From positions 1-64,000 of IMG/VR virus record IMGVR_UViG_3300017589_000047: DNA of 64,000 bases. One strand, 5' to 3'. The stretch's first letter is position 1; the number at the start of each line of letters is the position of its first letter. The notes under the pieces are model-generated. The model worked only from the letters and a program-made list of their open reading frames with translations, made no database searches and was not told the origin of the DNA. Positions 15,759 to 54,817 of this stretch are shown here, piece after piece. Made by a program: the position numbers and the translations under genes. The stretch is from a virus.

Positions 15759-15815
15759 TTACATTTGTTTGGCTCTTTCTTTTAAATATTTAATATAATC
15801 ATTAATTTCTGTCAT
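15759..15815 (-). CDS. 18-codon mini-ORF with a strong RBS (leader-peptide-like)
   Basis: GGAGGTAACAAA-ATG at 15815 reads MTEINDYIKYLKERAKQM. It is immediately followed by the GC-rich structured spacer. Confidence 0.35.
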   Translation of the reverse strand: MTEINDYIKYLKERAKQM

Positions 15816-15878
15816 TTTGTTACCTCCGATTTATTTTATATTATTTTTATTGTTGTACCACTGGACAACATTTAATTT

Positions 15879-16157: not shown

Positions 16158-16238
16158 TGATAAAACCTCCGATTTTGTAACTGGGCTTGCGACCAGTTCG
16201 CGCATTGCCAGGTATTTATTCCCCGTCACTCTGCTTGT

Positions 16239-16649: not shown

Positions 16650-16789
16650 TACATTGCCTTCGTTTTTACAAAATATCTATAACCGCCATATGCATTATCC
16701 ATTTTATCCTTTTTAGTCTTAGCTCTTTTTTCTGATGTATAAGTTCCGATTGTTTCCCCTGTTTGCCTATCCATTACCAAGTATTTCAT
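16649..16789 (-). CDS. 46-aa hypothetical protein (not in ORF track)
   Basis: GGAGGTATTGGAA-ATG at 16789 reads MKYLVMDRQTGETIGTYTSEKRAKTKKDKMDNAYGGYRYFVKTKAM. It is the first gene of the leftward operon. Confidence 0.45.
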   Translation of the reverse strand: MKYLVMDRQTGETIGTYTSEKRAKTKKDKMDNAYGGYRYFVKTKAM

Positions 16790-37394: not shown

Positions 37395-37712
37395 ATGGGT
37401 GAATGGATAAAGGAATATTGGTTAAAGGCTTTGTTTGGTGGGGTAATTACTTTGTTTGGCTGTTGGGGAAAAAAGAAAATTAGTTATCTAGAATGTAAAA
37501 TCAAGGAAGAAGAAATGCTAAAAGATGGCGTACAGGCTTTGTTAAAGGATAGAATCATTGAATCTTATAATCACTATATAGAGATAGAATATTGCCCTAT
37601 ATACGCTAGAGAGAATGTTCAAAATATGTATGATAAATACCATGCACTAGGTGGCAATGGCACAGTTACAGACTTAGTTAAAAAGTTATTTGATTTGCCT
37701 ACAGAGAGGTGA
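37395..37712 (+). CDS. Membrane-anchored small protein (lysis-cassette associated)
   Basis: N-terminal TM WLKALFGGVITLFGCWG and C-terminal ...YHALGGNGTVTDL. Confidence 0.45.
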   Translation: MGEWIKEYWLKALFGGVITLFGCWGKKKISYLECKIKEEEMLKDGVQALLKDRIIESYNHYIEIEYCPIYARENVQNMYDKYHALGGNGTVTDLVKKLFDLPTER

Positions 37713-37716
37713 TGTT

Positions 37717-37971
37717 TTGAAAAAAGAGTATACAAAACGTATGGTAAATTTCGTTATGATTACTTATTTCATAGGCCTGTTTATAGGTTCTTATGTGGTA
37801 TTAAAAATACTTATGGATTATCCAGAGTATGCCGTACAAGCTTTGATTGCCATGTTTACATACATAGGAACACCAACAGCAACTACAATAGGTTTTTATT
37901 GTTGGAAAGCTAAAAATGAAAATGTTAAGAAAATTGGAGGTAATATTGATGGAAATAATGACGATATTTAA
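37717..37971 (+). CDS. Holin-like two-TM protein
   Basis: TTG 37717 follows GAGAGGTGA. Two hydrophobic helices and a charged C-terminus. Confidence 0.55.
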   Translation: MKKEYTKRMVNFVMITYFIGLFIGSYVVLKILMDYPEYAVQALIAMFTYIGTPTATTIGFYCWKAKNENVKKIGGNIDGNNDDI

Positions 37972-38266
37972 AATGTTAGTAGTAGTAATGGTAACAGGAT
38001 TAATTGCATTGCAGTTCAAAAGTTTTAGCGAATGGTTAGTATGGGGAGTTACCGAAGCAGAAACTTATCTAGGAAGTGGAACAGGAGAATTAAAACTAAA
38101 ATATGTTTATGATTTAGCAATAGAAAGATTCCCTATTTTCGTAAAATTTATAACTTTTGATTTGTTTAAAAAATTAGTTGATGTTGCTTTAGATAAAATG
38201 AGGGAAATGATTGAAAACAACGAAGCTATTAATAATATAGTTTTGGGAAGTGATAAAATTGAGTAA
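37949..38266 (+). CDS. Holin-like protein (LL-H-type pattern)
   Basis: ATG 37949 lies 8 nt after GGAGG. N-terminal TM MLVVVMVTGLIAL, then AETYLGSGTGELKLKYVYD. Confidence 0.5.
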   Translation: MEIMTIFKMLVVVMVTGLIALQFKSFSEWLVWGVTEAETYLGSGTGELKLKYVYDLAIERFPIFVKFITFDLFKKLVDVALDKMREMIENNEAINNIVLGSDKIE

Positions 38267-38819
38267 TTTATATAAAGGTGAATATAAGATAACCTCACCA
38301 TTTGGACCTCGTAACTTATACGGTGACACAAGACCTCATAAGGGTATTGATTGCGTAGGTATAGGCAATAAAAATCTAGTTGCTATATGTGATGGTACTG
38401 TTATTTCAAGTCAAATGCTTCTTAAAGAGAATGATAAAACTGGTACTTGGGAATGGGGTAACTACATAAAGCTTGATGATGGATATGGTTATTACCCTCA
38501 CTATTGCCATTTAAGCAAAAGATTAGTGAGTAAAGGTATGAAAGTATCAAAAGGGCAAAAAATAGGTGTAGAGGGTGAAACAGGCTACTCACGAGGTTCG
38601 CATTGCCACTTTGAAGTTAGGGATTCTAAAGGTGTTTCAATAGACCCAATTTTATATTTTAAAATACTTGAAGAAAGGAATAAACCTATGACAGTTGACG
38701 AAGCAAAGAAAATAGTCAAGGAAAAAGCTGGACTAGATGATAATACAATTACCTACTTAGCACAATCATATAAGTATGGCGATGCATTGATAGTCAAGCT
38801 TGCTAATGCAATGATATAA
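38250..38819 (+). CDS. M23-family metallopeptidase (endolysin or tail lysin)
   Basis: HKGIDCVG ... GETGYSRGSHCHFEV matches the HxxxD / HxH zinc motifs of M23. Confidence 0.8.
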   Translation: MIKLSNLYKGEYKITSPFGPRNLYGDTRPHKGIDCVGIGNKNLVAICDGTVISSQMLLKENDKTGTWEWGNYIKLDDGYGYYPHYCHLSKRLVSKGMKVSKGQKIGVEGETGYSRGSHCHFEVRDSKGVSIDPILYFKILEERNKPMTVDEAKKIVKEKAGLDDNTITYLAQSYKYGDALIVKLANAMI

Positions 38820-38828
38820 AATATTATA

Positions 38829-38860
38829 AAAAGCCATTCTAACGAGTGGCTTTTTATTTT
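38829..38860 (+). terminator. Intrinsic terminator after the M23 gene
   Basis: AAAAGCCA-(10 nt)-TGGCTTTTTATTTT. Confidence 0.7.
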
Positions 38861-38878
38861 TACAAAGGAGCTGATATT

Positions 38879-39400
38879 ATGAAAGATAAAGGAATTGGAA
38901 TAGATGCAGTTGCTGTTGGTGCTGGATTAAGTATCACTGAACACGCAAAATGGCAACCTAAATGGATAATTGAAAAATATGATAAAGATATGAAATTATA
39001 TGAAACAGAAGAAATTGACGGTAATTTGCTTTTAAATGAAGGAATTACCGAATTACTTAATCTATTAATTGGCGGTACCGCAACCGCTTTCAATAATGCC
39101 AATGCTTATATTGGAATCGGCGATGGAACAACTGCTGCCGTGACTACTCAAACAGGATTATTAGGTGCTAATAAGACCTATGTTGGAATGGATTCTACTT
39201 ATCCGCAAGCATCGGGAAATGTCGTAACCTTTAGTTCTACATTTGGACCTACAATTGGCAATCATGCATGGAGAGAATTTACAGTATGTAATTCTAATAG
39301 TGATACGGGAAAAAACTTAAATCGTAAAGTAGAATCGGCTTTAAGAAGTAAAGTTAATCCAGATACATGGGTTGTAAGACTTACGATAACTATATCATAA
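38879..39400 (+). CDS. Structural (fibre/baseplate-associated?) protein
   Basis: ATG 38879 follows AAAGGAG. 173 aa, beta-rich composition. Confidence 0.4.
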   Translation: MKDKGIGIDAVAVGAGLSITEHAKWQPKWIIEKYDKDMKLYETEEIDGNLLLNEGITELLNLLIGGTATAFNNANAYIGIGDGTTAAVTTQTGLLGANKTYVGMDSTYPQASGNVVTFSSTFGPTIGNHAWREFTVCNSNSDTGKNLNRKVESALRSKVNPDTWVVRLTITIS

Positions 39401-39413
39401 GGTGGCGGTATAA

Positions 39414-40262
39414 ATGGCTAAAACTAATTGGCAAGACCCTAAAAGTTCAGAAATTATATCTCCCCATATATCAGGATTGCAAGAAGCTATTGGCAAACTT
39501 GAAGAATCTTTAGGGATATCCTCTACTGCCGAAACAGGCATAGTTTTATCAGAGGTTTATATTTCCGAAACGGATAGATATAGAATTTATCAAGCTTCAG
39601 AAGGTAAAAGAAATTGGTTATCCTTCCCTACTCCAATTGTAAAAAAAAATGGAGTGCAAATATCCACAGGCTTTATTATTGAATATGGTGGCGGTGCAAT
39701 TGTATTTACTACTCCTATTTTAGGGACGGATATAGTTACTGCCGATGCTACTTATACAATAAAAGAATCTACATCTGTTACGGCACGAATTAACACTTTG
39801 GCTCCTCATCCTACTTTATTAGTTACGGGCACAAATGGAGTACACGGATTAAAAATAGAGAGCGGAACATTTACTTCAAGTGTAGCTGGATGGAGTACTT
39901 TTGGAGTTAATACTTACTCCATTCAACATAGTACATATTATTTATTAGGCAAAATATGCAAATTTGATATTTATATTGAGATGACTGTAAAAGATGCAGC
40001 TATGGCAGGCTCGATTGTTATTAATGATTTGCCATTTGCAAGTAAAAATCAAACAAATAAAAATCAAGCTGTACAAATCGGTATATTTAATAATATAGAT
40101 TTAGATGTGACAAGATATCTATTAAAAGGTGTTATTTTACCAAATACTAATAGGATATGGATACTACAAACAGGTGATAATGTGGCTCATACAAATCTTA
40201 CTGCAACACAATTAAATAATACAACGCTTATACAAATAAGTGGCGTATATGAAATAGCATAG
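39414..40262 (+). CDS. Tail-fibre-like protein
   Basis: The N-terminus MAKTNWQDPKSSEIISPHISGLQEAIGKLEESLGI is the kind of conserved fibre N-terminus seen in Firmicute phages, recalled from memory and not verified. Confidence 0.4.
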   Translation: MAKTNWQDPKSSEIISPHISGLQEAIGKLEESLGISSTAETGIVLSEVYISETDRYRIYQASEGKRNWLSFPTPIVKKNGVQISTGFIIEYGGGAIVFTTPILGTDIVTADATYTIKESTSVTARINTLAPHPTLLVTGTNGVHGLKIESGTFTSSVAGWSTFGVNTYSIQHSTYYLLGKICKFDIYIEMTVKDAAMAGSIVINDLPFASKNQTNKNQAVQIGIFNNIDLDVTRYLLKGVILPNTNRIWILQTGDNVAHTNLTATQLNNTTLIQISGVYEIA

Positions 40263-40273
40263 GAGGAGATAAA

Positions 40274-40507
40274 ATGATAGAAAAATATACATTAGATATG
40301 CTTACACAAGACAGTGTGAGCGTAAAAAAACAAACATATATTGATTACATGGGGCAACAGTACCCAATCGGTGAGCCTTGGAGAAGGGCTTATGTAAACA
40401 GCATTCAGGGCAGAGAACAAATAATTGCTGAATTACCGCAGGTACAAGTAAATGCAATAATGGCTGTTTGGGGTGACACTCCAACGGTAACAGAAGTTAC
40501 AGAGTAG
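40274..40507 (+). CDS. Small hypothetical protein (fibre chaperone?)
   Basis: 77-aa ORF with GGAGGAG RBS, followed by a hairpin plus T-run near 40535-40560. Confidence 0.4.
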   Translation: MIEKYTLDMLTQDSVSVKKQTYIDYMGQQYPIGEPWRRAYVNSIQGREQIIAELPQVQVNAIMAVWGDTPTVTEVTE

Positions 40508-40574
40508 GGAACAAAAGAAAAATTTCGTGTCCTAAAGGATCTCTTATGAGGTCTTTTTTCATTCTTAAAAGAAG

Positions 40575-40976
40575 GTGATTTCCTTGAAAGAATATAAAAA
40601 CGGAGATTATACTAATTATTTTGACACTTCAATATTACCAAGCGGACAGACTATAAGAATTGAGTTTCAAGAAGAGTGGGGTAAGTCAAAGTATTTTTAT
40701 AGTATCTACCTAGTTACTTCCCATAAAAGAAAGCAAGCTGATTCTACATATGGAATAGCAACAGGAAAAGATGGTTTTAAAGGTTTGTTATGAGCTAAAA
40801 GTAAAATAATTGAATTTGAAGCTTTTATAAAAGAAAAACATCTTGATATACCAATAATTATTTATTGTCATTGGACGGATAATAAAAGAAGAAATATGTA
40901 TGAACGTGGTTTATCTAATATTGGTTATAAATACAACTTTTTATTTGATAAGAAGGTTTTAAGCAAAATGATATAA
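40575..40976 (+). pseudogene. ORF with a single in-frame TGA (72 + 61 codons)
   Basis: ...KDGFKGLL-TGA-AKSKIIEFEAFIKEKHLDIPIIIYCHWTDNKRRNMYERGLSNIGYKYNFLFDKKVLSKMI-TAA. 61 stop-free codons after the TGA are unlikely by chance in this AT-rich DNA. Confidence 0.5.
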
Positions 40977-41026
40977 AAAACAAGACGGAAGAAACCTTTA
41001 ACTGACCAAGAAAGGGGTTATTATGA

Positions 41027-42025
41027 ATGGGGGATGATAAAGAGTTAGTTATAATTAAAATATTATCAGAGTTACAGGATAAATACAACATAAATAACGT
41101 GGATGTAAAAAACATACTAGATAGGAATTTAGGTAATTATTTTTTAATATCTAACGAGACAAGCCTAATGGCATCTGATTTAAATGAAAAAATACAGTTT
41201 TTTCTAGGATTAAAGTCTCTAGAGGGGCTTTCAAAACTTTCATTACAGCGATACAAAGAAGAATTATTAATGTTTGGAAGGTACATAATAAAACCAGTAA
41301 GACAAATTACAGTTAATGACATTAGGACATATTTTATTATTATTCAATCAGAAAAGAGTTACGAAAAGATTACTATAAATGGAAAACTAGGTGTATTAAG
41401 GAGTTTTTTTGGCACGCTTTATAAAGAAGAAATGATTGAAAAAGACCCAACTATTAGGCTTAAAAACATAAAAGTTGATGTGAAGGGTCTTAGGGAACAT
41501 TTAACCGCAGAAGAATTGGAGATAGTAAGAAATGTGTGTATTAATATTAGAGAAAAAGCAGTCATTGAATTTCTTTATAGTACCGGATGCAGAGTTTCGG
41601 AAGTTGTGGAATCAAAATTAAATGATATTAACTGGAATAGTAATAGTCTTATAGTGCACGGCAAAGGAGACAAGTGTAGAACTGTTTATTTTTCTGTAAA
41701 ATGCAAATTATATCTAAGGGAATATATAGAAAATAGAAATGGAGATTGTGAATCCCTTTTTATAGGAGAGAGAAGTCCTTATAGTTCATTAACAAAATCA
41801 GGATTAGAAAAAGTTGTTAAAAAGATTGCATTGAGGACTAAAATAAATAAGAAAATTTCACCACACGTATTTAGACATACTTTTGCAACTTTAGCATTAC
41901 AACGAGGAATGGACATAACATCAATACAGCAAATTTTAGGACATGAACAAATTAATACAACACAAATTTATGCAAAGACAAATACTAAACAACTTCAAAT
42001 TGCCTATGAAAAATTCATAGCATAA
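41027..42025 (+). CDS. XerC/D-like tyrosine recombinase embedded in the tail module
   Basis: N-terminal SAM-like domain (LSLQRYKEELLMFGRY...) and catalytic STGCRVSEV ... HVFRHTFAT ... LGH ... QIY. Confidence 0.85.
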   Translation: MGDDKELVIIKILSELQDKYNINNVDVKNILDRNLGNYFLISNETSLMASDLNEKIQFFLGLKSLEGLSKLSLQRYKEELLMFGRYIIKPVRQITVNDIRTYFIIIQSEKSYEKITINGKLGVLRSFFGTLYKEEMIEKDPTIRLKNIKVDVKGLREHLTAEELEIVRNVCINIREKAVIEFLYSTGCRVSEVVESKLNDINWNSNSLIVHGKGDKCRTVYFSVKCKLYLREYIENRNGDCESLFIGERSPYSSLTKSGLEKVVKKIALRTKINKKISPHVFRHTFATLALQRGMDITSIQQILGHEQINTTQIYAKTNTKQLQIAYEKFIA

Positions 42026-42053: not shown

Positions 42054-43118
42054 TTGGCTAATTACAATTTTAAAAGAATATACAATAAAATAACACCTGA
42101 TGGTGGGGCGAATTATAATTCTACTCCATTTATGATATTAATAGCGGATAACGCTTTAGGTAACGATAATATTTACAGTGTTTTAATAAATTCTAATATA
42201 AACGATAACGGAACAGGAATAGAAAATATAAATGCCTCTACGACCATTCAAATAGTCGATAATTCAATTAGTTTAATCGATGAAATTAATGTAATTAATA
42301 ATATAAATATTTCTGATGTCGGGCAAGGAATAGATATCATATATTCGATTTTAAACAATGTTAATATATCTGACAATGGATATGGAACTGATTATTTATC
42401 GATAGCAACTACTTATTTCCTTATTGATGCGGATAATATTTTAAATCCTTTAGGTATCTTAATAACAAGAGATACGAGGGAAGAAATACTTCCTGCAATT
42501 AAAAAATACATTGAAACAGTACCAGGTAAACAGGGTGAATATAATTTCAAAACGGAACTTAAAGCAAAAACGCTTGAATTAACAGCAGTTACTCCTGAAG
42601 GACTTACGCCCAAAGAGAAAATAGATTTAAAAAGATTATTTGCAAAATATCTTAGTCCTTTAAATGGCGAAAAAAGCTTAGTATTTGCAGATGACATTGA
42701 ACGTCAATATAAAGTAAGATATTCAGGGAAAATAAATCCCGATAATTTCCCTTCGTGGTTCAGATTTGCAATTCCTTTTAAAATGAGCAGTCCTTTTGTA
42801 ATTGGCTCTTTTGAAAATATGCAAATAGGAAAAGGAACTATTGAAAATAAAGGCAATATTGATACTCATGTAATAATTGAGATATCTGGATTAACCACTA
42901 ATCCATCTTTAATTTTTAATGGCGAAGAACTGAGTTATACAGGAACAATAAACGCAAGTGAAACTCTTGTTATTGATACCTATAAGCAAACTGCTAAAAT
43001 TGGAGATCTAAATGTTTTAGATAATTGGTGTAAAATATTCCCTATATTAAAACCCGGAACAATAGATGTTGCTATGAGCAATAACATTGCAATAAAATGG
43101 AGGGCAAAATGGCTATGA
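42054..43118 (+). CDS. Distal tail protein (Dit-like) with an N-terminal repeat extension
   Basis: The C-terminal ~250 aa is paralogous to 43097..43873. The N-terminus carries three copies of NI(N/S)D(N/V)G.G(I/T)(E/D). Confidence 0.55.
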   Translation: MANYNFKRIYNKITPDGGANYNSTPFMILIADNALGNDNIYSVLINSNINDNGTGIENINASTTIQIVDNSISLIDEINVINNINISDVGQGIDIIYSILNNVNISDNGYGTDYLSIATTYFLIDADNILNPLGILITRDTREEILPAIKKYIETVPGKQGEYNFKTELKAKTLELTAVTPEGLTPKEKIDLKRLFAKYLSPLNGEKSLVFADDIERQYKVRYSGKINPDNFPSWFRFAIPFKMSSPFVIGSFENMQIGKGTIENKGNIDTHVIIEISGLTTNPSLIFNGEELSYTGTINASETLVIDTYKQTAKIGDLNVLDNWCKIFPILKPGTIDVAMSNNIAIKWRAKWL

Positions 43119-43873
43119 TACCTATAGATGATGGGAATGGAAATATTGAATATGTCGATTTGGTAATCACAGAAGACAATATATTACTCCCTTTAAACAC
43201 TAGAATAATACAAGGTGGAAACGAAGATTTACTTCCTCCAACAAGAGATATATCAGAAGAAATTGACGGAACAAATGGCGAATATTATGAGGAAACAGAA
43301 TTTGAAGCAAGAAGTTTTGAACTGGCGACTGTTACACAAGAAGGATTAACCCATAGTGAAATTTATAATTTGAAACGTGACATTGCTTCAATTCTAAATC
43401 CTTTAAATGGGACTAAGTCTTTAGTATATTTAATTGAACCTGATAAAAAATACATGGTTGATGTAAACGGAAAAATCGAAGTTACTCCATACCCTACTTG
43501 GTTTCAATTTAATATTCCATTAATTATGCATGACCCTTTCATTATATCAACTTTTGAAAAAAGTTTAATTGGCAGTGGAACAATTAAAAACGAAGGTACG
43601 CATAAAACAGGATTAATAATTGAAATATCTGGTCCTATTGGATTTGATGAAACAGTTGAAATTATAATCGGAGATAATGTTTTAACTTATACTGGATATT
43701 TAACATCTGATAACAAAGTAATAATTGATACTGAAAAATACGTTGCTAAAACCTTATATTATAATATAACAGAAGGATTTAACAATGTATATCCAATGCT
43801 AAATTCTGGCGAAGAACTTAATGTTATAGCTCCAAATAATGTTAAAATTAATTGGTTTGATAAATGGATTTAA
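43097..43873 (+). CDS. Distal tail protein (Dit-like), second copy
   Basis: Aligns by eye with the upstream gene (ELATVTQEGLT...LNPLNGTKSLVY...PTWFQFNIPL...DPFI...GTIKNEGT...IIEISGP). Confidence 0.55.
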   Translation: MEGKMAMIPIDDGNGNIEYVDLVITEDNILLPLNTRIIQGGNEDLLPPTRDISEEIDGTNGEYYEETEFEARSFELATVTQEGLTHSEIYNLKRDIASILNPLNGTKSLVYLIEPDKKYMVDVNGKIEVTPYPTWFQFNIPLIMHDPFIISTFEKSLIGSGTIKNEGTHKTGLIIEISGPIGFDETVEIIIGDNVLTYTGYLTSDNKVIIDTEKYVAKTLYYNITEGFNNVYPMLNSGEELNVIAPNNVKINWFDKWI

Positions 43874-43885: not shown

Positions 43886-46051
43886 ATGCAAATACCTAAA
43901 TATATAGAAATAAAAATCAATGATAAAACGGTAGCTTTTTTATCGCCTAATGATGGACTAAAGGATGTATATTCTGATACCCGACTGAATGGCGAATCTA
44001 CTTTAGAATTTAGTTTGCCCTCTAATAGCGAAAAGATATCCGAACTAATGACTGAATGCGAAATATATGCTAATTTTAAAGTTTATAATTTATTGAAAGA
44101 TGAAGCCGTTGAAGAAGTTATGGATGAATCAGGCAAAACTTGGTCTAAGTTCATGGCTGTCGAGAGATGGAATAAACTTGACACAGAATATGTTGAACCT
44201 TATATATCTAACGACCCATCTATCCCGTACCCTGCTGATTTGGCAGTTATAATCGTTGGTGGTGGAACTAATTTAACAAGTGGTATATATCCTACTGGAA
44301 CTGCTGCTCATGCTCTATATTCCATATTACAAGGCTCTAGTTGGTCTATGGGAATATGTGATGTTACTGGCATTCATGATTTGGAATTGGAAAAACAAAG
44401 TCGATTATCAATTATTAAAGAAATTCAAAATAAATGGGGTGGTTTTCTTGTATGGGATAGCGTTAATAAGACCGTTCATCTTAGAAGTGGCTCACTCTGG
44501 CAAATATACAGGGGAACAAAATTTAGATATGCTAAAAATCTAAAACATATCGCAAGAACGCAATCTAATAAATTAACTACTAGGTTATTTTGCTTTGGCA
44601 AAGATAATCTGGATATTGCCTCTGTTAATAGTGGAATAAAATATTTAACTGACTTTAGTTATTCTAGCAACATTTACACGGATACTTATATCAATTCCGA
44701 TATTGAAGATGCAGAAGAATTAAAACAACTTGGATATGCAGAATTGGCTATAAACTGTAAGCCAAGATATAATTACAAAGCTAAGGTTGTAGATTTAAGC
44801 ACATTAGGAGATTTATATGACGAAACTATTCGATTAGGAGAGATGGTTGATATAATAAATTCTAAACTTGCAATTATTGATAATGTTAGGATTATCCGCC
44901 ATAAATATAATATCTTTCAACCTTGGAATTGCGAATTAGAACTTGGAGACCCAATAGAAAGGCTTGTAGAGAAATTAAAAGCTTCTTTTGATACTACCGG
45001 GTTCATTAATAATACCTTTGATTCTAGTGGTAATATATCTGGTAATAAATTGGTTGATGGTTCTGTTATAAATAATAAAATTGCTAATGCAGCTTTGGAC
45101 GCATCTAAATTTAACACTAAACAAATTATACTAGCTGGCGATGCTTGGAGCGATAATACCCCTTCTAGTGGCTATGTATCATGGATTGCTCATAAGTTAT
45201 TTTATGGCGGTGTTGAATATAGTATTATAGCAGGAAACACTAATAAAAAATATATTGTTTGGCAAAAAAGTAATAGTTCTATAATATATCAATGCTATAC
45301 AGAAGATGAATTTGCATTGGTTAATTTAGCAGAAAGTGAATTTGTTATTGCTGTAAATAATAGCGGATTGCATGACATTGCTTGGTACAGTCGTTTAGCA
45401 AGACAATTTATAGGTAGTATTTTTATTGCTGATGCTGCTATTAAAACTGCTGCTATACAAGATTTGGCCGTTACGAATGGAAAGATAGCTGATTTAACAA
45501 TTACAAGTGCTAAGATAGGATATGCTGCTATAAAAAGTGCTAACATTGACGATTTAGCTGTTACTACTTTTAAGATTGGCGATACTACTATAACAGAAGC
45601 GAAGCTTGCTAATCTGGCGGTTACTTCAAATAAATTAGATAATTTAGCGGTTACGAATGCCAAAATTGCCAATTTAGCAGTAACAGATGCAAAGATAGGA
45701 AGCTTATCAGCTGGTAAGATTACTGCTGGAACTATTACTGCTTTGATAAGTATTGAATCTCCTAAACTTTATAGTGGTAAGTATTATGGTTCAAGTTCAA
45801 GTAGTGCTTTTCTTGAAGTCGGCACTACTAATGGTAATTTAGCCGATTTGTCATTGTTTAGAGGTGGAACTTCTAAGCCTATGTTTCAAGTATATGATGG
45901 TACGCCTATAGTTTTATTAAAAGCATTAAATTCATCTAATGTCTTAAGCACTTTCCTAGAAACTACAGGAGATACAAGTAAGCCTAGAGGAAGTTGGGAT
46001 TTTTCAAGTGCTATTGTTAGCGGAATAGCCACTACAGCAACATTCAAATAA
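43886..46051 (+). CDS. Tail-associated lysin / minor structural protein (Tal-like) with a C-terminal fibre repeat region
   Basis: The N-terminus MQIPKYIEIKINDKTVAFLSPNDGLKDVYSDTRLNGESTLEFSLP is the prophage-tail-endopeptidase type. The C-terminus has AVTNxKIxxL-type repeats. Confidence 0.7.
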   Translation: MQIPKYIEIKINDKTVAFLSPNDGLKDVYSDTRLNGESTLEFSLPSNSEKISELMTECEIYANFKVYNLLKDEAVEEVMDESGKTWSKFMAVERWNKLDTEYVEPYISNDPSIPYPADLAVIIVGGGTNLTSGIYPTGTAAHALYSILQGSSWSMGICDVTGIHDLELEKQSRLSIIKEIQNKWGGFLVWDSVNKTVHLRSGSLWQIYRGTKFRYAKNLKHIARTQSNKLTTRLFCFGKDNLDIASVNSGIKYLTDFSYSSNIYTDTYINSDIEDAEELKQLGYAELAINCKPRYNYKAKVVDLSTLGDLYDETIRLGEMVDIINSKLAIIDNVRIIRHKYNIFQPWNCELELGDPIERLVEKLKASFDTTGFINNTFDSSGNISGNKLVDGSVINNKIANAALDASKFNTKQIILAGDAWSDNTPSSGYVSWIAHKLFYGGVEYSIIAGNTNKKYIVWQKSNSSIIYQCYTEDEFALVNLAESEFVIAVNNSGLHDIAWYSRLARQFIGSIFIADAAIKTAAIQDLAVTNGKIADLTITSAKIGYAAIKSANIDDLAVTTFKIGDTTITEAKLANLAVTSNKLDNLAVTNAKIANLAVTDAKIGSLSAGKITAGTITALISIESPKLYSGKYYGSSSSSAFLEVGTTNGNLADLSLFRGGTSKPMFQVYDGTPIVLLKALNSSNVLSTFLETTGDTSKPRGSWDFSSAIVSGIATTATFK

Positions 46052-46068
46052 ATAAAGGGGGTGACATT

Positions 46069-46338
46069 TTGGATACATTTAATATCTATGAAAGTGATGG
46101 AATTGAATATTGCGAAAAGAATGAAGAGATATATCATTCAGCTTCTAATATTATAAGGTTGATGAATGAGCATAATTTCTACGGCATTGATTTTATTGAA
46201 TTTGCTAATGGTAATTTGAGATTTTATGATAAAAATAAAAATACTTTAATTGAAAATGTACCATATGAAATGATTCAAAATAGGATATTTATTCCTAAGA
46301 CCTATTACGAAAATACAATGTTGCCATTAATTGTATAA
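46069..46338 (+). CDS. Hypothetical protein
   Basis: 89-aa ORF with GGGGGTG RBS. Confidence 0.45.
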   Translation: MDTFNIYESDGIEYCEKNEEIYHSASNIIRLMNEHNFYGIDFIEFANGNLRFYDKNKNTLIENVPYEMIQNRIFIPKTYYENTMLPLIV

Positions 46339-46412
46339 TTATCTTGTATAAATTTAGCAATGTGTGTTATAATAAAATAATGAAATATTAAAATAATGGA
46401 GGATTAATAGTA

Positions 46413-47018
46413 ATGAAAAATAGAATAAAATATTTTATGATTGGATTTTTAATTTGTTTTGTTTTAATGACGACAACTCCGGTATTAGCAGACACGATAT
46501 TACAAAAAATAGACGTAATTTTAAACACAGTAAAAGTAGACGTTAATGGTAAAAAATTAAATACAAATAGCATATTATATAACGGAACAGTTTATATTCC
46601 AATAAGAGATGTATCGGAAGCTTTAGAAAAAGATGTTATCTGGGACCAAGATACAATGACGGTAAGTATAAACAATAAAACGGATAACGATATTAAAAAT
46701 ATTGCGAAATACAATGAATTCATTAAAAAATTTGATTTAAAAGACGATATGTCAGCAAAGCTTAATGATAAAACATATTCGTATTATAAGTTTTCTTATA
46801 ACGGTGATTTAAACGACGATGAGTTTAATACATGGATTTCTGAATATTCAAACGAACTAAATTCTTACTTCAAAGCTTCATATAATAGCTTGGGCACTTA
46901 CGGAGTATTAAATACAATAGTTGAATTTACCAAAGCTTCAGATAATGGTGTTGAGTATTGGATAGGTAGAGTTATTAATGATTCAGAAGGGCTTATAATA
47001 GAAGTAAACAGGAAATAA
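46413..47018 (+). CDS. Secreted protein with a copper-amine-oxidase-N-terminal-like (stalk) domain
   Basis: Signal peptide MIGFLICFVLMTTTPVLA, then VDVNGKKLNTNSILYNGTVYIPIRDVSEALEKDVIWDQDTMTVSI. Confidence 0.55.
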   Translation: MKNRIKYFMIGFLICFVLMTTTPVLADTILQKIDVILNTVKVDVNGKKLNTNSILYNGTVYIPIRDVSEALEKDVIWDQDTMTVSINNKTDNDIKNIAKYNEFIKKFDLKDDMSAKLNDKTYSYYKFSYNGDLNDDEFNTWISEYSNELNSYFKASYNSLGTYGVLNTIVEFTKASDNGVEYWIGRVINDSEGLIIEVNRK

Positions 47019-47046
47019 GTTAAAATAAATATTAAATAGTTATACA

Positions 47047-47077
47047 AGAGCAGTTAAAAATTTAACTGCTCTTTTTT
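47047..47077 (+). terminator. Intrinsic terminator
   Basis: AGAGCAGTTAAA-AA-TTTAACTGCTCT followed by TTTTT. Confidence 0.75.
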
Positions 47078-47100
47078 ATACCTAAAAACAGGAGGATAAT

Positions 47101-48318
47101 ATGAGTTGTGAAAATTGTTTAGGTGATTGCAAGATAGAAAAAAATACAAAAAAAGAATATCAAGATATAACTTCAGCTTTTTTTATACTAACCAATCAAT
47201 GTCCTTTAGCTTGCAGATATTGTTTCGTTAATCAAAATGTTAAAAACATGTCTTATCAAACAGCGCTAGATGCTACTAGCTTTTTAATAAAAAATGCAAA
47301 AGAAAATAACACAACTCCTTCTATAGTATTTTTTGGTGGAGAGCCTTTGGTGCAATGGGATAATATAATTGTGCCCTTATCAAAATATATCAGAGAAGAA
47401 TATAATAAATCGTTTGATTTAAGCATAACAAGTAATTGTGTTTTAATGACAAAAGATAAATTAGATTTTATGAGAGAATACAATATAAAGTTATTGTTTT
47501 CAATGGATGGAGATAAAGAAACACAAGATTATAATAGACCTTTTCATAACAATAAAGGCAGTTTTGACATATTAGATCCTAAGATAGATATGATACATGA
47601 GTATTTTCCAAACGTTACTTTTAGAGCAACTATTCATAAAAATACATGTGCCAATACATTCCATGATATGAAATTTGCCGTAGAAAGAAATTTTAAAAAT
47701 ATGTTTTTTATACCTAATGTGTTTGATGATTGGAGCAAAGAACAAAAAGAAATGTTAACAAATCAAGTTAGAATGTTTGGCGATTACTTTATTGAGAATG
47801 CTAGAAATGATAAGATTGTACATTTAATAAATTTAGATAATATTATTGTGGATATCCCAAATATAAACGAACGCAAAAGAAAGGGAATGGAAAGACTTAT
47901 TTCTAACCATAAATGTGGCTTAGGAACGGGTTTTTGGTCTAGTATTTCAGTAGAAGGTGACATAATTGCTTGTCAAGAAATGCCTACTAATGACAAAGGA
48001 ATTTTTGGAATAGGAAATATTTACGATGGAGAAAATCTTGAAAAAAGAAAGAGATTAAGGTCACTATATGATTCAAAATTAGTACGAGGATTAAATAATT
48101 GCAAAGATTGCAAACTAAAAACTGTCTGTGATGGCGGTTGTATTGCAAATAATTTTATGAATAATGGTGATTTAAATGTTGTATCTGATATGTTTTGTTT
48201 TTGGCAACAACTGCTATTAGAAGAAGCTATAAGAATATGTAATATTTTAGGTAGTGAGAAAAATGAATTATTCAAATCTACTTATTTTTCTGCTCTAAAT
48301 AGTGAGAAGGTGAAATGA
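47101..48318 (+). CDS. Radical SAM enzyme with a C-terminal SPASM domain (peptide/protein-modifying maturase type)
   Basis: CPLACRYC (CX3CX2C). SPASM signature CGLG...GDIIAC ... CKDCKLKTVCDGGC (CX2CX5CX3C) ... C. Confidence 0.85.
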   Translation: MSCENCLGDCKIEKNTKKEYQDITSAFFILTNQCPLACRYCFVNQNVKNMSYQTALDATSFLIKNAKENNTTPSIVFFGGEPLVQWDNIIVPLSKYIREEYNKSFDLSITSNCVLMTKDKLDFMREYNIKLLFSMDGDKETQDYNRPFHNNKGSFDILDPKIDMIHEYFPNVTFRATIHKNTCANTFHDMKFAVERNFKNMFFIPNVFDDWSKEQKEMLTNQVRMFGDYFIENARNDKIVHLINLDNIIVDIPNINERKRKGMERLISNHKCGLGTGFWSSISVEGDIIACQEMPTNDKGIFGIGNIYDGENLEKRKRLRSLYDSKLVRGLNNCKDCKLKTVCDGGCIANNFMNNGDLNVVSDMFCFWQQLLLEEAIRICNILGSEKNELFKSTYFSALNSEKVK

Positions 48319-49163
48319 TGTCTGATTTTATAAATCTACCCTCGTTTCTAAGTCAATCAATATCTACATATGGCATTAATGCTTGTGGAGATTGCCAAGT
48401 TATTTGTACTGGCTGTGAAAGATATGAGGGATGCGGAAGTTGTGAAAGTTGTACAAGTTCATGTACGTATGGCTGTACAGCTTCATGTACATCAAGTTGT
48501 ACGTCAAGCTGTACAAGTAGCCAATGTGGAGATTGCCAAGTTATTTGTACTGGCTGTGAGGGCTGTCAAACGGGTCAGGGATTACCCAAACTTCCAACCC
48601 CAACTTTAAATACGAGCGCAACTATAAAAAAAAGCAACTCCATACAAATAACAATAAATACAGTCGAAGGTGCCACTAGATATTATGCACGAATAAACGG
48701 TGCAAACGAACAAAATTCAGATTCTAAAACCTTTTTATTTAGTGGATTAACACCGCTTATTAAATATTTTATAGAAATTAAAGTTTATGGTGCTTTATAT
48801 GAAGATTCTGAATGGGGTGGTTATTATGCTACTACTTCTGGTGCTTGGGAATGGTGGACACCTAAAACATCTGGGGTTGGTTTTAATGTGGGAGCTGATG
48901 AATGGTTAGCATTCTATACTAGGATTAATGAAATTAGAGTATCGGTGCTGGGTATCGGTAGTGAATATTCGTTTGCAACAGATGCTACATATATATCACC
49001 TGGCAAGGATTATTATGCTTGGATATTCCTGCAAGCTTGTAATGCTATTAACCAAATTAATGGACAAGTATCAACAGAGTTATTAAACGTAGTTTCTGGT
49101 AATGATATTTACGCTTGGTACTTTGAAAATCTTAAAACTGCATTGAATAATGCCATTACTTAA
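48315..49163 (+). CDS. Cys-rich repeat protein fused to an FN3-like and a C-terminal domain (candidate substrate of the rSAM/SPASM enzyme)
   Basis: Its start overlaps the rSAM stop (ATGA). Residues 24-85 hold 17 Cys: CGDCQVICTGCE (twice) flanking SCESCTSSCTYGCTASCTSSCTSSCTSS. LPTPTL...ATRYYARINGA...FSGLTP...IEIKVYG is FN3-like. Confidence 0.7.
   Translation: MMSDFINLPSFLSQSISTYGINACGDCQVICTGCERYEGCGSCESCTSSCTYGCTASCTSSCTSSCTSSQCGDCQVICTGCEGCQTGQGLPKLPTPTLNTSATIKKSNSIQITINTVEGATRYYARINGANEQNSDSKTFLFSGLTPLIKYFIEIKVYGALYEDSEWGGYYATTSGAWEWWTPKTSGVGFNVGADEWLAFYTRINEIRVSVLGIGSEYSFATDATYISPGKDYYAWIFLQACNAINQINGQVSTELLNVVSGNDIYAWYFENLKTALNNAIT
48384..48418 (+). repeat. 35-bp perfect direct repeat, copy 1
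   Basis: TGTGGAGATTGCCAAGTTATTTGTACTGGCTGTGA, identical to 48525-48559. The offset is 141 bp (47 codons). Confidence 0.9.
48525..48559 (+). repeat. 35-bp perfect direct repeat, copy 2
   Basis: Identical to 48384-48418. Confidence 0.9.
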
Positions 49164-49284
49164 TCACAGGTTATATTTTAGCTTATATCGAATTTTATTC
49201 AAGTCTTAATGTATTTGTATTGTAACTTATTTTACTAATCGTAAAACTTAATTAAATAGGTCATTTTTTAGTTGCAAAATGTAA

Positions 49285-49318
49285 AAAGCTACTCGAAATT
49301 TGAGTAGCTTTATTTTTT
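49285..49318. terminator. Bidirectional terminator at the convergence point of the two phage arms
   Basis: AAAGCTACTC-GAAATTT-GAGTAGCTTT, flanked by an A-run and a T-run. Confidence 0.75.
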
Positions 49319-49896
49319 TAACTTTCACTTCTTTTGATAAGTGATTTTACTTTTTTATAAGATTCCATGTCTATCATGGCAATAATATTTATTTGTTTAA
49401 TTGCTTTTTTTACATTTGCTTGAATCTGCCATTCGCTGTAATACTTTTTTTCATTCTTAAGATGTTGAGCAACTTCATTCCATGTTTTCGCTTCCCAATA
49501 TTTTAAAGGCAATAATTCTTTTTGGATTTCGGTTAGTCCTTTTAATCCTATCTCTATTTTGTCTAAAATAACTTCTATGCAGTAAATCTCTTTTATTATT
49601 TCTTTGACTGCTTTTTTGTTTTCCTTTGCCTCATTATCAATTGTCTGCTGATAAAGCAATGCTCCGTTTTCAGTTGTCGAATGAAAACTATTTGTATTTG
49701 AATGAGGCATGTCCGATAATTCGTAATTATTAAATGTCATTCCTTTTATGTAATCGTCATCAGCATCTTTTGCATATTCCTTAACTCGTTTTAAATCTGC
49801 ATCTAATGAAAGCTTTATGTTTTTTAGTAATGGCACTAGTGAAAATAGTTCTTTCATTTCTTCGGTTCTGATATATTCTTTTTTTATTCTAAACAC
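49318..49896 (-). CDS. Sigma-region-4-like / ArpU-RinA-type late transcription regulator (tentative)
   Basis: The C-terminus LTEIQKELLPLKYWEAKTWNEVAQHLKNEKKYYSEWQIQANVKKAIKQI is a region-4-type HTH. Last gene of the leftward arm. Confidence 0.5.
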   Translation of the reverse strand: MFRIKKEYIRTEEMKELFSLVPLLKNIKLSLDADLKRVKEYAKDADDDYIKGMTFNNYELSDMPHSNTNSFHSTTENGALLYQQTIDNEAKENKKAVKEIIKEIYCIEVILDKIEIGLKGLTEIQKELLPLKYWEAKTWNEVAQHLKNEKKYYSEWQIQANVKKAIKQINIIAMIDMESYKKVKSLIKRSES

Positions 49897-51789: not shown

Positions 51790-52782
51790 TTAACTAAACA
51801 TTGTAATTTGACTATTATAACTATCTTTAATCTTAGCCCATGGCTCGTACTTATCGAAATCTGGAACAGCTTTATAAATCATTGAATCAACCCATCTAGC
51901 AAATTTATTAAGTCTTTCATCGTCCTTCTTTTCGTTATACTTCATAACATATGGTCTGATACCTAATTCATTTAGTTTGTGGAATCTGTACATATCCTCT
52001 TCGAATGTTGTATTAAATCCAACAAGCATAAAGCACATATGATTATAAGTTTTGATATGTTTAGATAATGTTTTAATCCCGTCTAAAACTTGATTTTCAA
52101 ACTCCATCAAGTCCCAGGCGTAATGTATTGACCTTAAATGTTTTACTTCTTTCATCGCTTGTGCAATATCATCTGTCATTAAACGAACATCACAACCTTG
52201 GTTGATATCAACTATAAGTTTTCTGTCCCTGATTTCGTGTAGCTTGTCTATAACAAAAGGATCTGCGGTTAAATTATTGTCGTGCAATATCAGTACATTG
52301 CTTCTTGGATTGATTAAATCTTTTATTTCTGCTATGTCTCTGAACGGTCCTTCTTTTTCAGGTACGAAACAAAATTTACAATTTCTTATACATCCCCTAG
52401 AAGTAAATCCCATGCCGGCATTTACGATTTCTTCTGCTTTTTCCAACTTATGAGCTTTTGTCATTATGCCTTTCATTCTTGGCGCTATGTCTGTAACTTT
52501 ATATAAATCATAGTCAGGCTTCATACTTTCAATTTCTACCGGCAATTCTTTTTTTATATTCCATCCTGTACCGCCAATTTCTATTTTGTCGCCGTAATAA
52601 TCTTGAAGTTTTTGACATTCGTCTTTTGACCTTGTAAATACTGCACTGGCAAATATCTTGTCATATTCAGTTCCGAGTTGTACAAATTCAACTTCACAGC
52701 CATTTGATTTGTAATAACTACTTATTTTCATCAAAGCTAAATTTGGTATTCTGCTGTCAACGTCTATCAATCCTATTTTCAA
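51790..52782 (-). CDS. Radical SAM protein (COG1032-like, Rossmann/B12-like N-terminus)
   Basis: TSRGCIRNCKFCFV (CX3CX2C). The TTG start abuts the stop of the C5-methyltransferase gene (TAATTG). Confidence 0.7.
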   Translation of the reverse strand: MKIGLIDVDSRIPNLALMKISSYYKSNGCEVEFVQLGTEYDKIFASAVFTRSKDECQKLQDYYGDKIEIGGTGWNIKKELPVEIESMKPDYDLYKVTDIAPRMKGIMTKAHKLEKAEEIVNAGMGFTSRGCIRNCKFCFVPEKEGPFRDIAEIKDLINPRSNVLILHDNNLTADPFVIDKLHEIRDRKLIVDINQGCDVRLMTDDIAQAMKEVKHLRSIHYAWDLMEFENQVLDGIKTLSKHIKTYNHMCFMLVGFNTTFEEDMYRFHKLNELGIRPYVMKYNEKKDDERLNKFARWVDSMIYKAVPDFDKYEPWAKIKDSYNSQITMFS

Positions 52783-53778
52783 TTAATTGTCCTCCTGTAA
52801 ATCCATTATGTTAATTTGTCTTTTGTCTTGCTTTTGAGTTTCTCCTAAAATTATCTTACGGAATATACTTTCAAATATTGGTACAGGTATAGAATTTCCT
52901 GATTGTTTATATAAAGCTCCATTTAATTTACCTTTTGTACCTGGATGAACCGATAATGCATTTTCATAATCAATATCAGAATAGCCTTGTAATCTCCAAC
53001 ATTCTAATTCTGTTAAGTATCTGTATTTTCCATTATCCAAATCCACTACTCCGCTGTTAGGACTTCTCATTTGCTTACATGTTATGGTCGTACAATAATC
53101 CTTTATGACCTCAACTCTGCCATTGAAAGACGATTTGCTTGTTCCGTTAATAAGTTTTAGCATGCTAGGTTGTGTTACAATATGCTGTTCCCCATAATCA
53201 TTTGTTAAAAACTCTGATATATTTCTCATTGGAGTTCTAATTAATTCGTCAAAATTAAAATGCGTACCATCTAAACGACTAATTGTAAAAACTCTTTGTC
53301 TTGCTTGTGGTAATCCGAAATCTCTAGCATCTAATACATCAAACGAATTTGTATATCCTAACCGCTCCATTTCCCTTAAATAGCCGTTAAAGTTATGTAT
53401 CATATGTTTACTCAATACATTCTTTACATTCTCCCAAATAACAATCCTTGGCTTCCATGCACCCATTTGATTTATAATATTTAAGGTTTCCCACATAAGA
53501 CTTGACCTTGTTTCACTTCCCTTGTCAGCACCCTTTTGTTTACCTGCTATACTAAAATCTTGACAAGGACTTCCATGTATCAATATGTCAGGCTTTAAAT
53601 TCCAATCAACTACAGATTGAGGTTTATAAGAAAGTTCCTTTTTAAACATTGCATTATAGGAACATACTGCCTTTTCGTCTATTTCAACATAGTCTATTGA
53701 TTTTACAGGAACACCAATATTTCTAAGTGCAATTCTAGGACTTCCTATGCCTCCAAACAATTCAAGTATTTGTAACAT
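52783..53778 (-). CDS. DNA (cytosine-5)-methyltransferase
   Basis: Motifs LFGGIG (I), GSPCQDFS (IV), WENV (VI), QARQRVF (VIII) and GNSIPV (X). Confidence 0.9.
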   Translation of the reverse strand: MLQILELFGGIGSPRIALRNIGVPVKSIDYVEIDEKAVCSYNAMFKKELSYKPQSVVDWNLKPDILIHGSPCQDFSIAGKQKGADKGSETRSSLMWETLNIINQMGAWKPRIVIWENVKNVLSKHMIHNFNGYLREMERLGYTNSFDVLDARDFGLPQARQRVFTISRLDGTHFNFDELIRTPMRNISEFLTNDYGEQHIVTQPSMLKLINGTSKSSFNGRVEVIKDYCTTITCKQMRSPNSGVVDLDNGKYRYLTELECWRLQGYSDIDYENALSVHPGTKGKLNGALYKQSGNSIPVPIFESIFRKIILGETQKQDKRQINIMDLQEDN

Positions 53779-53790
53779 CTTTACTCCTTT

Positions 53791-53814
53791 GAGAAGTCAC
53801 TGAAGCGACTTCTC
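53791..53814 (-). promoter_or_regulatory. 10-bp-stem intercistronic hairpin (UUCA loop) immediately 5' of the Dcm RBS
   Basis: Minus strand: GAGAAGUCGC-UUCA-GUGACUUCUC, then AAAGGAG. Paralogous copy at 54835-54858. Confidence 0.7.
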
Positions 53815-54817
53815 ATTTAATTTTTAACTGCTCACAAGTACCTTTAAATTCACCAATAACTTTATTTTCGTACTGACGATATGGTACGCATATATAGTCT
53901 AATACCTCACCAACTCCTAAATCTTCTATGCAATATTTATATAATTGCGGATGGCTTTCTGCCATTTTTTGAAATCTGTTTGGTAAATCTTCTAAATGAC
54001 ATCCAAATCCACAAAACATGCATCCAGTCCTTTGCACTCCAGTTGTTCTGTAAATGCCATTTTCGCAAATTATATTGCCGTATACGTTACATATTTTCAA
54101 GTCATTTTCTACAACATATCTAAGTACATCTTGCTTAGTCCAAAATCCCATAGGTTGACTTTTGGGAGCATTTGCTTCATAAACATTGCATCCTGTTTTA
54201 CTGTATTGTCTTTGCCTCATAAACCCTTCGTCTTGAGTAATACCTATAAATGGGTATCTTTCTGTTTCTTTATGGTATTTTTTAAAAGGTGATTTTTTCA
54301 TTACGTCACAACATTTTTCAGAAGTGTCAAACGGTGCATCAACTAAGAACTTCCACTTGTCAGCCAACTTACCTAGCTTTCCTCTTTCATCACCGTGCAA
54401 TAGATAATTTCTATACTTATCTGATAGATTTCCATGCCTTAATTTCCTTACCTTTGCAGCCGTTTCTTTTGATACAATTGGATATCCATATTCTTTTATA
54501 ACTTGTCGAAATGATTTGTCGGGTTTAATAATAGTTACATTATCAAATGTTTTTATATGTTCAACTAATTCGGGATATTCAAGCCCTGTATTAGCAAATA
54601 CCGCTACTACATTATCTCTTAAGGTTTGTCTTACTAAGTGCAATAAAACCGTGCTGTCCAAACCGCCGCTAAAACTTACGTATACATTGCCGTTATAATG
54701 GTTATACCAATCATTTATTCTTTGTTTCGAGAGTATAAGCTTCAACTCATAAGGCAACCATTTTCTTTGACTAAAAGCCCAATCTTTGAGTTTTAGATCT
54801 ATATCTTGAATATACAA
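53813..54817 (-). CDS. PAPS-reductase-family PP-loop protein with a C-terminal Cys cluster (DndC/IbrA-like class)
   Basis: VSFSGGLDSTVLLHL (SGGxDS PP-loop). C-terminus TGCMFCGFGCH. TTG start. Confidence 0.7.
   Translation of the reverse strand: MYIQDIDLKLKDWAFSQRKWLPYELKLILSKQRINDWYNHYNGNVYVSFSGGLDSTVLLHLVRQTLRDNVVAVFANTGLEYPELVEHIKTFDNVTIIKPDKSFRQVIKEYGYPIVSKETAAKVRKLRHGNLSDKYRNYLLHGDERGKLGKLADKWKFLVDAPFDTSEKCCDVMKKSPFKKYHKETERYPFIGITQDEGFMRQRQYSKTGCNVYEANAPKSQPMGFWTKQDVLRYVVENDLKICNVYGNIICENGIYRTTGVQRTGCMFCGFGCHLEDLPNRFQKMAESHPQLYKYCIEDLGVGEVLDYICVPYRQYENKVIGEFKGTCEQLKIK

Follow-up and report, generated by a model that had tools for sequence, protein, structure and literature searches.

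Why should a phage encode a radical S-adenosylmethionine (rSAM) enzyme whose gene runs directly into that of a Cys-rich protein? The two genes in question occupy positions 47,101 to 49,163 of the first 64,000 nucleotides of IMG/VR virus record IMGVR_UViG_3300017589_000047. This whole 64,000-nucleotide stretch is the window referred to below. A first-pass annotation, made from the DNA letters, had proposed that the enzyme cross-links its Cys-rich neighbour. Our preferred reading, to which we give a probability of roughly 55%, concerns the two-gene module as a whole. Briefly, an rSAM/SPASM enzyme without a recognition element (RRE) for ribosomally synthesised peptides that are modified after translation (RiPPs) would staple a translationally coupled partner with FN3 and helical domains. 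The reaction would be ranthipeptide-like and would take place on the scale of a whole protein.

The enzyme and its coupled partner

The enzyme gene has the following features.

47090..47095, + strand: ribosome-binding site AGGAGG, 5 nt 5' of the rSAM ATG (read from the sequence)
47101..48318, + strand: radical SAM/SPASM enzyme, 405 amino acids (aa), the proposed maturase (Pfam, NCBIfam, PDB comparison, alignment of 113 relatives)
47200..47223, + strand: CX3CX2C motif CPLACRYC, residues 34-41 (C34, C38, C41), binding the radical-SAM [4Fe-4S] cluster (motif and conservation)
47914..48198, + strand: SPASM region with seven Cys (C272, C291, C334, C337, C343, C347, C366) (motif; alignment to CteB)

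Membership of the radical-SAM superfamily is clear from Pfam model PF04055 (2.4e-15; 57.5 bits against a cut-off of 29.5). The SPASM assignment comes from the motif, and the Pfam SPASM hidden Markov model (HMM) PF13186 gave no match to the enzyme at E <= 0.1. The seven Cys read C272-X13-G-X4-C291, C334-X2-C337-X5-C343-X3-C347 and a trailing C366. This agrees with the seven-Cys SPASM signature (CX9-15GX4C, gap, CX2CX5CX3C, gap, C). Across 113 aligned relatives, the CX3CX2C Cys are 99% conserved and the seven SPASM Cys 100% conserved. An additional N-terminal CxxCxxxC is not conserved.

The partner gene, whose start overlaps the rSAM stop codon, is organised as follows.

48315..49163, + strand: partner protein, 282 aa, the proposed substrate; its start overlaps the rSAM TGA in ATGA (open reading frame (ORF) list, sequence)
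48315..48383, + strand: leader-like segment, residues 1-23, motif FINLPSFL (family comparison)
48384..48566, + strand: Cys-repeat module, residues 24-84, 17 Cys in 61 residues (sequence, AlphaFold2)
48384..48418, + strand: direct repeat copy 1, exact over 35 nt, encoding CGDCQVICTGCE (sequence comparison)
48525..48559, + strand: direct repeat copy 2, exact over 35 nt, encoding CGDCQVICTGCE (sequence comparison)
48582..48839, + strand: fibronectin type III (FN3) domain, residues ~90-175, with the linker LPKLPTPTL ahead of it (AlphaFold2, Foldseek)
48840..49160, + strand: C-terminal helical domain, residues 176-282, of the phrog_37329 / Basilisk gp52 C-terminal family (AlphaFold2, profiles, hhalign)

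The partner gene start is preceded by GAAGGTGA and the protein N-terminus reads MMSDFINLPSFLSQSISTYGINA. Within the family, the leader follows the consensus [LIF][IE]x[IV]Px[FY]L, which is missing from Cys-poor homologues. Cys residues in the window module are spaced 3-4 residues apart. The residue after Cys is T, E or Q in 14 of 17 cases, and Thr in 8 of 17. Candidate minimal units of the repeat are CTSSCTSSCTSS and CQTTCEESCQTN.

The partner was modelled using AlphaFold2 with an alignment of 40 sequences. No fold is predicted for residues 14-86, including the Cys module (predicted local distance difference test score, pLDDT, < 50). Over residues 90-175 the pLDDT exceeds 90, and Foldseek returned hundreds of FN3 matches, many at a probability of 1.00. 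This region is thus a seven-stranded beta-sandwich matching solved FN3 domains. The Pfam fn3 HMM matches homologues of the partner but not the window protein. Modelled alone, the helical domain gave a pLDDT of 90.5 and a predicted template modelling score of 0.85; a Foldseek search of the PDB with this domain alone found no match (best E 2.3). In whole-protein Foldseek searches FN3 matches dominate. Pfam, NCBIfam and PHROGs contain no significant family for the window partner.

The first-pass annotation had listed the CPLACRYC and SPASM motifs, the ATGA overlap, a leader-like segment of about 23 residues, 17 Cys in 61 residues and an FN3-like domain. All of these are borne out. The C-terminal domain had been put at ~130 aa; it is helical and closer to 105 aa.

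Conservation of the pairing

A search of 5.8 billion proteins identified 41 relatives of the partner, all metagenomic. We retrieved 38 loci and scored them by script. In Cys-rich relatives, 8-40 Cys precede FN3 and the leader reads xDDFIQIPSFL. Cys-poor relatives comprise FN3 and helical domains only, or have the Cys region replaced by a papain-like peptidase. An intact rSAM gene is directly upstream in 14 of the 17 Cys-rich members with readable upstream DNA, the window being counted, compared with 0 of 12 Cys-poor members (Fisher p = 1e-5). The upstream enzymes are 58-67% identical to that of the window.

The same pairing is seen starting from the enzyme, for which there are 232 relatives at E <= 1e-20. 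Three of these, on long contigs (L039-L041), sit inside tail modules; L041, for instance, has the order tape measure, Dit, Tal, rSAM, partner. L039 is a prophage in a 791-kb contig from a metagenome-assembled genome, and phages with the pair occur in anaerobic digesters and the gut. In all three, the rSAM gene is directly followed by one whose product, of 237-392 aa, has 16-30 Cys and a leader of the form (I/V)P(S/D)(Y/S)L. The leader motif recurs beside rSAMs only 38-50% identical to the window enzyme. An rSAM profile scan of IMG/VR gave 80 loci, including 31 non-redundant loci with an rSAM >= 35% identical. In 29 of the 31, a Cys-dense ORF (190-790 aa, 9-13 Cys per 40 residues) overlaps or abuts the rSAM gene. 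Start-stop overlap or abutment is found in nearly all related loci (gap -35 to +21 nt). The two genes stay adjacent while rSAM identity ranges from 35% to 73% and the partner bodies are unrelated. Independent lineages of uncultured phages with the pair number several dozen or more. The first-pass annotation had named beforehand a pairing not conserved elsewhere as grounds for abandoning its proposal; the counts above go the other way. We consider it highly probable that the two proteins are enzyme and substrate.

What is shared by the partners? We compared the Cys module in 33 proteins: the window partner, 29 Cys-rich relatives and the partners from L039-L041. Of the distances between successive Cys, 53% are 4 and 26% are 3. 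Gln follows Cys in 36% and Glu in 31%, so that 67% of Cys precede Q or E. The typical unit is C[Q/E]xx, with a period of 4, and the window copy is Thr-rich. The module is nearly devoid of K, R, H, P, F and W and ranges from 8 to 40 Cys. It is borne by bodies of FN3 plus helical type, by Hoc-like head decoration proteins (matching phrog_10993 at 1e-85 to 1e-92) and by a ~550-aa domain of undefined type. Its placement varies between N-terminal, C-terminal and both ends. Since the repeat is found on differing bodies beside an rSAM gene, it is best described as a portable module that travels with the enzyme. The expectation that the substrate would be a full-size, domain-bearing protein is also upheld, given the FN3 domain and relatives that are in tail modules or Hoc-like.

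A distant branch of IMG/VR gut contigs (L106-L122; rSAM ~28% identical) encodes a 199-aa partner with a C-terminal Cys module, CILSCQVACQATCQLGCQSCQYNTCHNQNC. Partners of the L106 type have sub-threshold SCIFF matches (E 0.004 and 0.012) and the window partner has none.

Reaction type and rival explanations

Which reaction would the enzyme catalyse? Its best NCBIfam match is PapB (NF047865; 197.6 bits against a cut-off of 340). Next come the Nif11-peptide maturase, QhpD (TIGR03906; 134.9 bits, cut-off 453), the SCIFF maturase (TIGR03974; 132.6 bits, cut-off 425) and an ScfB-related orphan. All five are maturases of Cys-rich peptides or proteins, and PapB, QhpD and the SCIFF maturase form thioethers. 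Every one of these matches is far under its curated cut-off, which places the enzyme outside the families themselves; with regard to QhpD, the neighbouring genes are those of a phage tail and not qhpA and qhpC. Lower scores were obtained for HxsB (83 bits), the CXXX-repeat maturase (TIGR04115; 82.6 bits, cut-off 350) and the anaerobic sulfatase-maturating enzyme (anSME; TIGR03942; 76.7 bits, cut-off 349). The nearest PDB structure is that of thioether-forming CteB (5WGG; 3.7e-23), the alignment beginning at CteB residue 101. The anSME structure 4K36 is a weak match (3e-6).

Aligned to CteB, the SPASM Cys separate into three for auxiliary cluster 1 (AC1) and four for auxiliary cluster 2 (AC2). 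By analogy with CteB, these would be the cluster ligands of the phage enzyme (PMC10177961). PapB, CteB and Tte1186 have the same layout of 3 + 3 + 4 Cys ligands; for PapB and Tte1186, the substrate Cys is bound by the three-Cys AC1 at its open iron site (PMC10177961). The radical-SAM Cys lie at residues 104-111 of CteB and 119-126 of PapB (PMC10177961), compared with 34-41 here. Hence, the phage enzyme lacks an N-terminal leader-binding (RRE) domain.

Several known systems are instructive. The phage pair resembles PapB/PapA (freyrasin) in its three-cluster rSAM/SPASM enzyme and in the prospect of one enzyme stapling a periodic Cys array repeatedly. PapB installs six thioethers, from Cys to Asp C-beta, along CX3D repeats (PMC10177961). 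However, PapB has ~85 extra N-terminal residues, and neither its RRE region nor a CX3D peptide is found at our locus. Here, the system is phage-borne, with a 282-aa multidomain substrate, C[T/Q/E]xx repeats and Cys every 3-4 residues. The SCIFF enzymes CteB (with CteA) and Tte1186 share the seven-Cys SPASM region with a three-Cys AC1. CteB makes a Cys-Thr thioether, and Thr follows 8 of the 17 Cys in the window module. Conversely, the N-terminal leader-binding domain of CteB is without counterpart in the phage enzyme. SCIFF peptides are ~45 aa with one or few cross-links, and the window pair falls outside both the SCIFF maturase and the SCIFF peptide (TIGR03973/PF13165) definitions.

QhpD introduces several Cys-to-Asp/Glu thioethers into QhpC, the acceptors being Asp or Glu, and this subunit is kept in a larger assembly. 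The likeness lies in a SPASM enzyme that thioether-links a protein subunit of such an assembly. QhpC differs in being small and periplasmic, with a quinone cofactor, and in being neither a repeat array nor viral. The CXXX-repeat system (TIGR04115) also combines an rSAM/SPASM maturase with a target having Cys at every fourth residue. NCBIfam target-peptide models matched none of 11 partner proteins (the window partner and 10 diverse others). In the HXS antiphage system, HxsB and HxsC mature full-size HxsA, which has short repeats, in a phage-host conflict (PMC13128918). That system is bacterial, with His-Xaa-Ser repeats and a +8 Da modification accompanied by N-terminal processing (PMC13128918).

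We propose that the short N-terminal motif xFIxIPSFL would guide the enzyme in place of an RRE. In the reducing cytoplasm of an anaerobic host, the enzyme would cleave SAM reductively, while a substrate Cys thiolate would be held on the open iron site of AC1. An H atom would then be abstracted from a carbon close by, in a side chain or in the backbone. As acceptors, the Thr, Glu or Gln found after almost every Cys would be the best candidates, giving a donor to acceptor ratio of 1:1. In the nearest families, acceptors are Asp C-beta (PapB) and Thr (CteB, Tte1186) (PMC10177961). A thioether would form and, repeated along the array, the reaction would build a ladder of small covalent rings. In this way, a floppy thiol-rich segment would become a redox-insensitive and protease-resistant product. 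The ring ladder would substitute for disulfides, which cannot form in the cytoplasm; such a role is plausible in phages of anaerobes. The stapled module would be displayed at the distal N-terminal end, and the C-terminal domain would attach the protein to the virion, probably to the tail. Judged by homology, thioether chemistry is probable. The identity of the acceptor residue is a weak suggestion.

A number of observations weigh against this reading. The acceptor is not deducible, as Cys is mostly followed by Thr in the window and by Q or E in most relatives. The reaction type is drawn from homologies that lie under every curated family cut-off. Runs of CxxC and CxxxC could also bind metal or an Fe-S cluster. 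Loci L021, L022 and L024, which form one lineage, keep a leader-bearing 14-Cys partner without an intact rSAM gene. The rSAM is absent from L021 and L024 and, in L022 (4500-4960), a remnant joins its first 8 codons to the SPASM part. An enzyme thus seems to have been lost naturally while its substrate was retained; the phage may be able to do without the modification, or have it supplied in trans. No cultured phage with the system was found in GenBank, where tblastn searches with the window rSAM and a 41%-identical relative gave phage matches of <= 32% identity. Finally, the sole literature statement on a relative of the partner concerns gp52 of phage Basilisk. A locus within gp52 is hypervariable, and the description of gp52 as a tail-associated structural protein is its authors' speculation (PMC6145125).

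In the lineage of L021, L022 and L024, the partner gene now directly follows a truncated tail-fibre fragment.

The alternative that survives best retains the enzyme-substrate pair and changes the chemistry. The product could be formylglycine, as for anSME, C-C or C-O cross-links, or the result of epimerisation or methylation. As a group, SPASM enzymes are known to catalyse many reaction types, and the cut-off of every thioether family was missed. The anSME proteins are likewise RRE-less SPASM enzymes, of ~370-400 aa, with full-size substrates that have folded domains, and they are weakly matched by the phage enzyme (76.7 bits; 4K36 at 3e-6). However, thioether formers are the best matches by a wide margin. 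The seven SPASM Cys are arranged as in CteB, with a predicted open site at AC1, whereas anSME, with eight ligands, has full ligation of both auxiliary clusters. Furthermore, anSME converts Cys or Ser to formylglycine within a C/SxPxR motif, and the partner sequence has no sulfatase motif (C/S-x-P/A-x-R). Cys is also the single residue that is always enriched in the module. On balance, we regard another chemistry as unlikely.

Slightly less likely again is a classical RiPP. The Cys segment would then be a cross-linked core that is excised and leaves the cell on lysis as a bioactive peptide, for example a bacteriocin or a signal; FN3 and the helical domain would be no more than its carrier or follower. 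The order of leader-like motif and Cys-rich core suits this, as do the faint SCIFF likeness of L106-type partners (E 0.004, 0.012) and the fact that PapB and SCIFF family products are peptides. Yet genes for a protease, exporter or immunity protein are absent from the loci examined around the pair. Although a leader-like motif is present, the precursor would be 190-790 aa long with folded domains, which departs from a classical RiPP cluster. Modules occur at either terminus or at both, and 8 to 40 Cys are better suited to a structural element than to a defined ligand. The same FN3/helical body is also widespread without the module, in the same genomic position. Because there is no protease or exporter, and the copy number varies widely, a stapled structural module is likelier than a released peptide.

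Could the Cys segment be a metal or Fe-S module, such as a redox or iron-carrying tip of the kind in lambda gpL-type tail proteins, rather than a substrate? The rSAM would then act elsewhere, or be linked to the partner solely by a shared need for Fe-S. Dense CxxC/CxxxC arrays are typical of metal ligands, some relatives (P0004) have ferredoxin-like CxxCxxCxxC runs, and in three loci the Cys-rich protein persists although an intact rSAM gene is missing. Without a direct relation, however, it is hard to explain why rSAM genes are found in 0 of 12 Cys-poor loci and beside Cys-dense ORFs in 29 of 31. Q, E or T after Cys and a leader motif are atypical of metal-binding repeats, and translational coupling is conserved. 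We consider this explanation improbable. Chance or regulatory adjacency of functionally unlinked genes, which tight packing of phage late operons and the commonness of ATGA overlaps might allow, is very hard to reconcile with neighbours kept over 35% to 73% rSAM identity and unrelated bodies (Fisher p = 1e-5).

How new would a stapled partner of this kind be? Among GenBank phages, neither megablast with positions 46000-49400 nor tblastn with the partner sequence gave a match, and a scan of genome collections gave a single short contig from a metagenome-assembled genome, encoding a Cys-poor relative. Searches of the full-text literature found no description of a phage rSAM paired with a Cys-rich structural protein. 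Consistent with the first-pass annotation, which knew of no matching system, we found no precedent for a phage-borne rSAM that staples repeats in the full-text literature searched, GenBank phages and three HMM libraries (Pfam, NCBIfam and PHROGs). To our knowledge, radical-SAM thioether chemistry is known almost solely from small secreted peptides and very few cellular proteins. Full-size rSAM substrates include sulfatases (anSME) and the QhpC subunit (QhpD). Together with HxsA (PMC13128918), these make the earlier statement that known rSAM/SPASM substrates are short RiPP precursors too narrow.

The best GenBank phage match to the rSAM is in Phage Phass-1 (L042, OQ749652.1, 68353-69546), at 30% identity. 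This genome uses genetic code 15. The gene is annotated as two hypothetical proteins, a split call that probably results from a recoded stop codon, and ORF calls in the neighbourhood are fragmented.

If the partner is indeed stapled and borne on the virion, its rings would be the first thioether cross-links that an enzyme is known to put into structural proteins of a virus, and phage structural biology would gain a new kind of covalent post-translational modification. The system would be a protein-scale counterpart of ranthipeptides and sactipeptides, and a phage-specific modification system with hundreds of members. It would explain how phages of anaerobes could achieve disulfide-like stabilisation within a reducing cytoplasm. 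An RRE-independent enzyme that recognises a short transferable tag (xIPSFL) and a simple repeat would be attractive for protein stapling and display technology. A role would also be found for one of the 'radical SAM' genes that recur in virome surveys, where they are usually entered as auxiliary metabolic genes without an assigned role.

The partner body and the locus

Is the partner part of the virion? A profile of its helical domain identified 1064 clusters (50% identity) among 1.84 billion representatives. It nearly always forms the very C-terminal end of the protein, and 6 of 140 new representatives are Cys-rich. Of 139 representatives scanned, 53 match fn3, 7 match Peptidase_C1 and 111 match phrog_37329, a family without assigned function. 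The window partner alone has no phrog_37329 match at E <= 0.01. Using hhalign, the window helical domain aligned to Basilisk gp52 with a probability of 95.7% (E 8.5e-9). Hence, the window domain of ~105 residues belongs to the phrog_37329 / Basilisk gp52 C-terminal family. This family, as defined here, is large and without a solved fold. It also occurs in cultured Bacillus siphophages.

Basilisk gp52 has 593 aa, with the homologous domain at its end and FN3 ahead of it. Its gene follows that for the tail fibre immediately and precedes the lysis genes, and so resembles the window partner in following tail-fibre/Tal genes at the end of the virion module. It differs in having only 2 Cys and no rSAM neighbour. 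The FN3/helical body is common without a Cys module at the same genomic position. In P0033, L011, L020, L033 and L035, a papain-like Peptidase_C1 replaces the Cys module ahead of FN3 and the helical C-terminus. The body thus seems to be a scaffold for interchangeable N-terminal payloads. From gene context and these relatives, we lean slightly towards attachment of the partner to the virion or tail. More tentatively, RRE-less rSAM enzymes may make thioether ladders, proof against oxygen and proteases, on the distal ends of virion surface proteins (FN3, Hoc-like and others) in phages of anaerobic Firmicutes.

The position of the pair after tail genes, as first described, is correct. It lies 3' of Dit (42054-43873) and Tal (43886-46051), as well as of an 89-aa ORF and the gene for a secreted Cu_amine_oxidN1 protein, and ends the late operon. 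Two hairpins flank it.

47046..47073, + strand: terminator-like hairpin with a 12 bp stem and T run, between the Cu_amine_oxidN1 gene and the rSAM gene (hairpin scan)
49285..49311, no strand assigned: terminator-like hairpin, bidirectional, where the late and early gene blocks converge (hairpin scan)

Terminator-like sites number 6 in the window, against 1.6 expected. Promoter-like sites are at chance level (31 found, 30.5 expected); hence, a separate transcription unit for the pair is not established. Of the terminator-bounded unit in the first-pass annotation, the hairpins stand and a promoter of its own has a signal no better than chance. We also considered recent foreign insertion of the pair and rejected it, as the GC content (0.28-0.38) matches the flanks.

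Two neighbours recur. The Cu_amine_oxidN1 protein (46413-47018), which has a signal-peptide-like N-terminus, is also encoded near the pair or near Cys-poor relatives in L001, L006, L024 and L039. A ~90-aa ORF ending in YYENT(M/V)LPLI(V/K/N) is conserved beside the partner gene (window 46069-46338; L021 2106-2387; L024 5625-5906). It is 5' of the partner gene in the window and 3' of it in L021 and L024, and has no family match.

Further upstream, Dit takes the form of two Dit-like ORFs that overlap (42054-43118, 43097-43873). They are separated from the tape-measure gene (33414-37325) by a block of small ORFs (37395-42025) that contains an M23 peptidase (38250-38819) and a tyrosine integrase (41027-42025). 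An integrase within a tail module is unusual; insertion of an element, or a rearrangement, may lie behind it. The window ORFs scanned include no identified endolysin or holin. The minus strand of positions 1-16650 has anti-repressor, FtsK-like and HNH genes, and a second tyrosine integrase, of 412 aa, is encoded at 5572-6810 (phrog_1 at 5e-78). The element appears to be temperate and encodes two integrases. A second, unrelated radical-SAM protein is encoded on the - strand at 51790-52782 (phrog_9298 at 6e-79). It adjoins genes, also on the - strand, for a DNA methyltransferase (52783-53778) and a PAPS-reductase-like protein (53813-54817). Together, 51790-54817 looks like a DNA-modification module in the early region.

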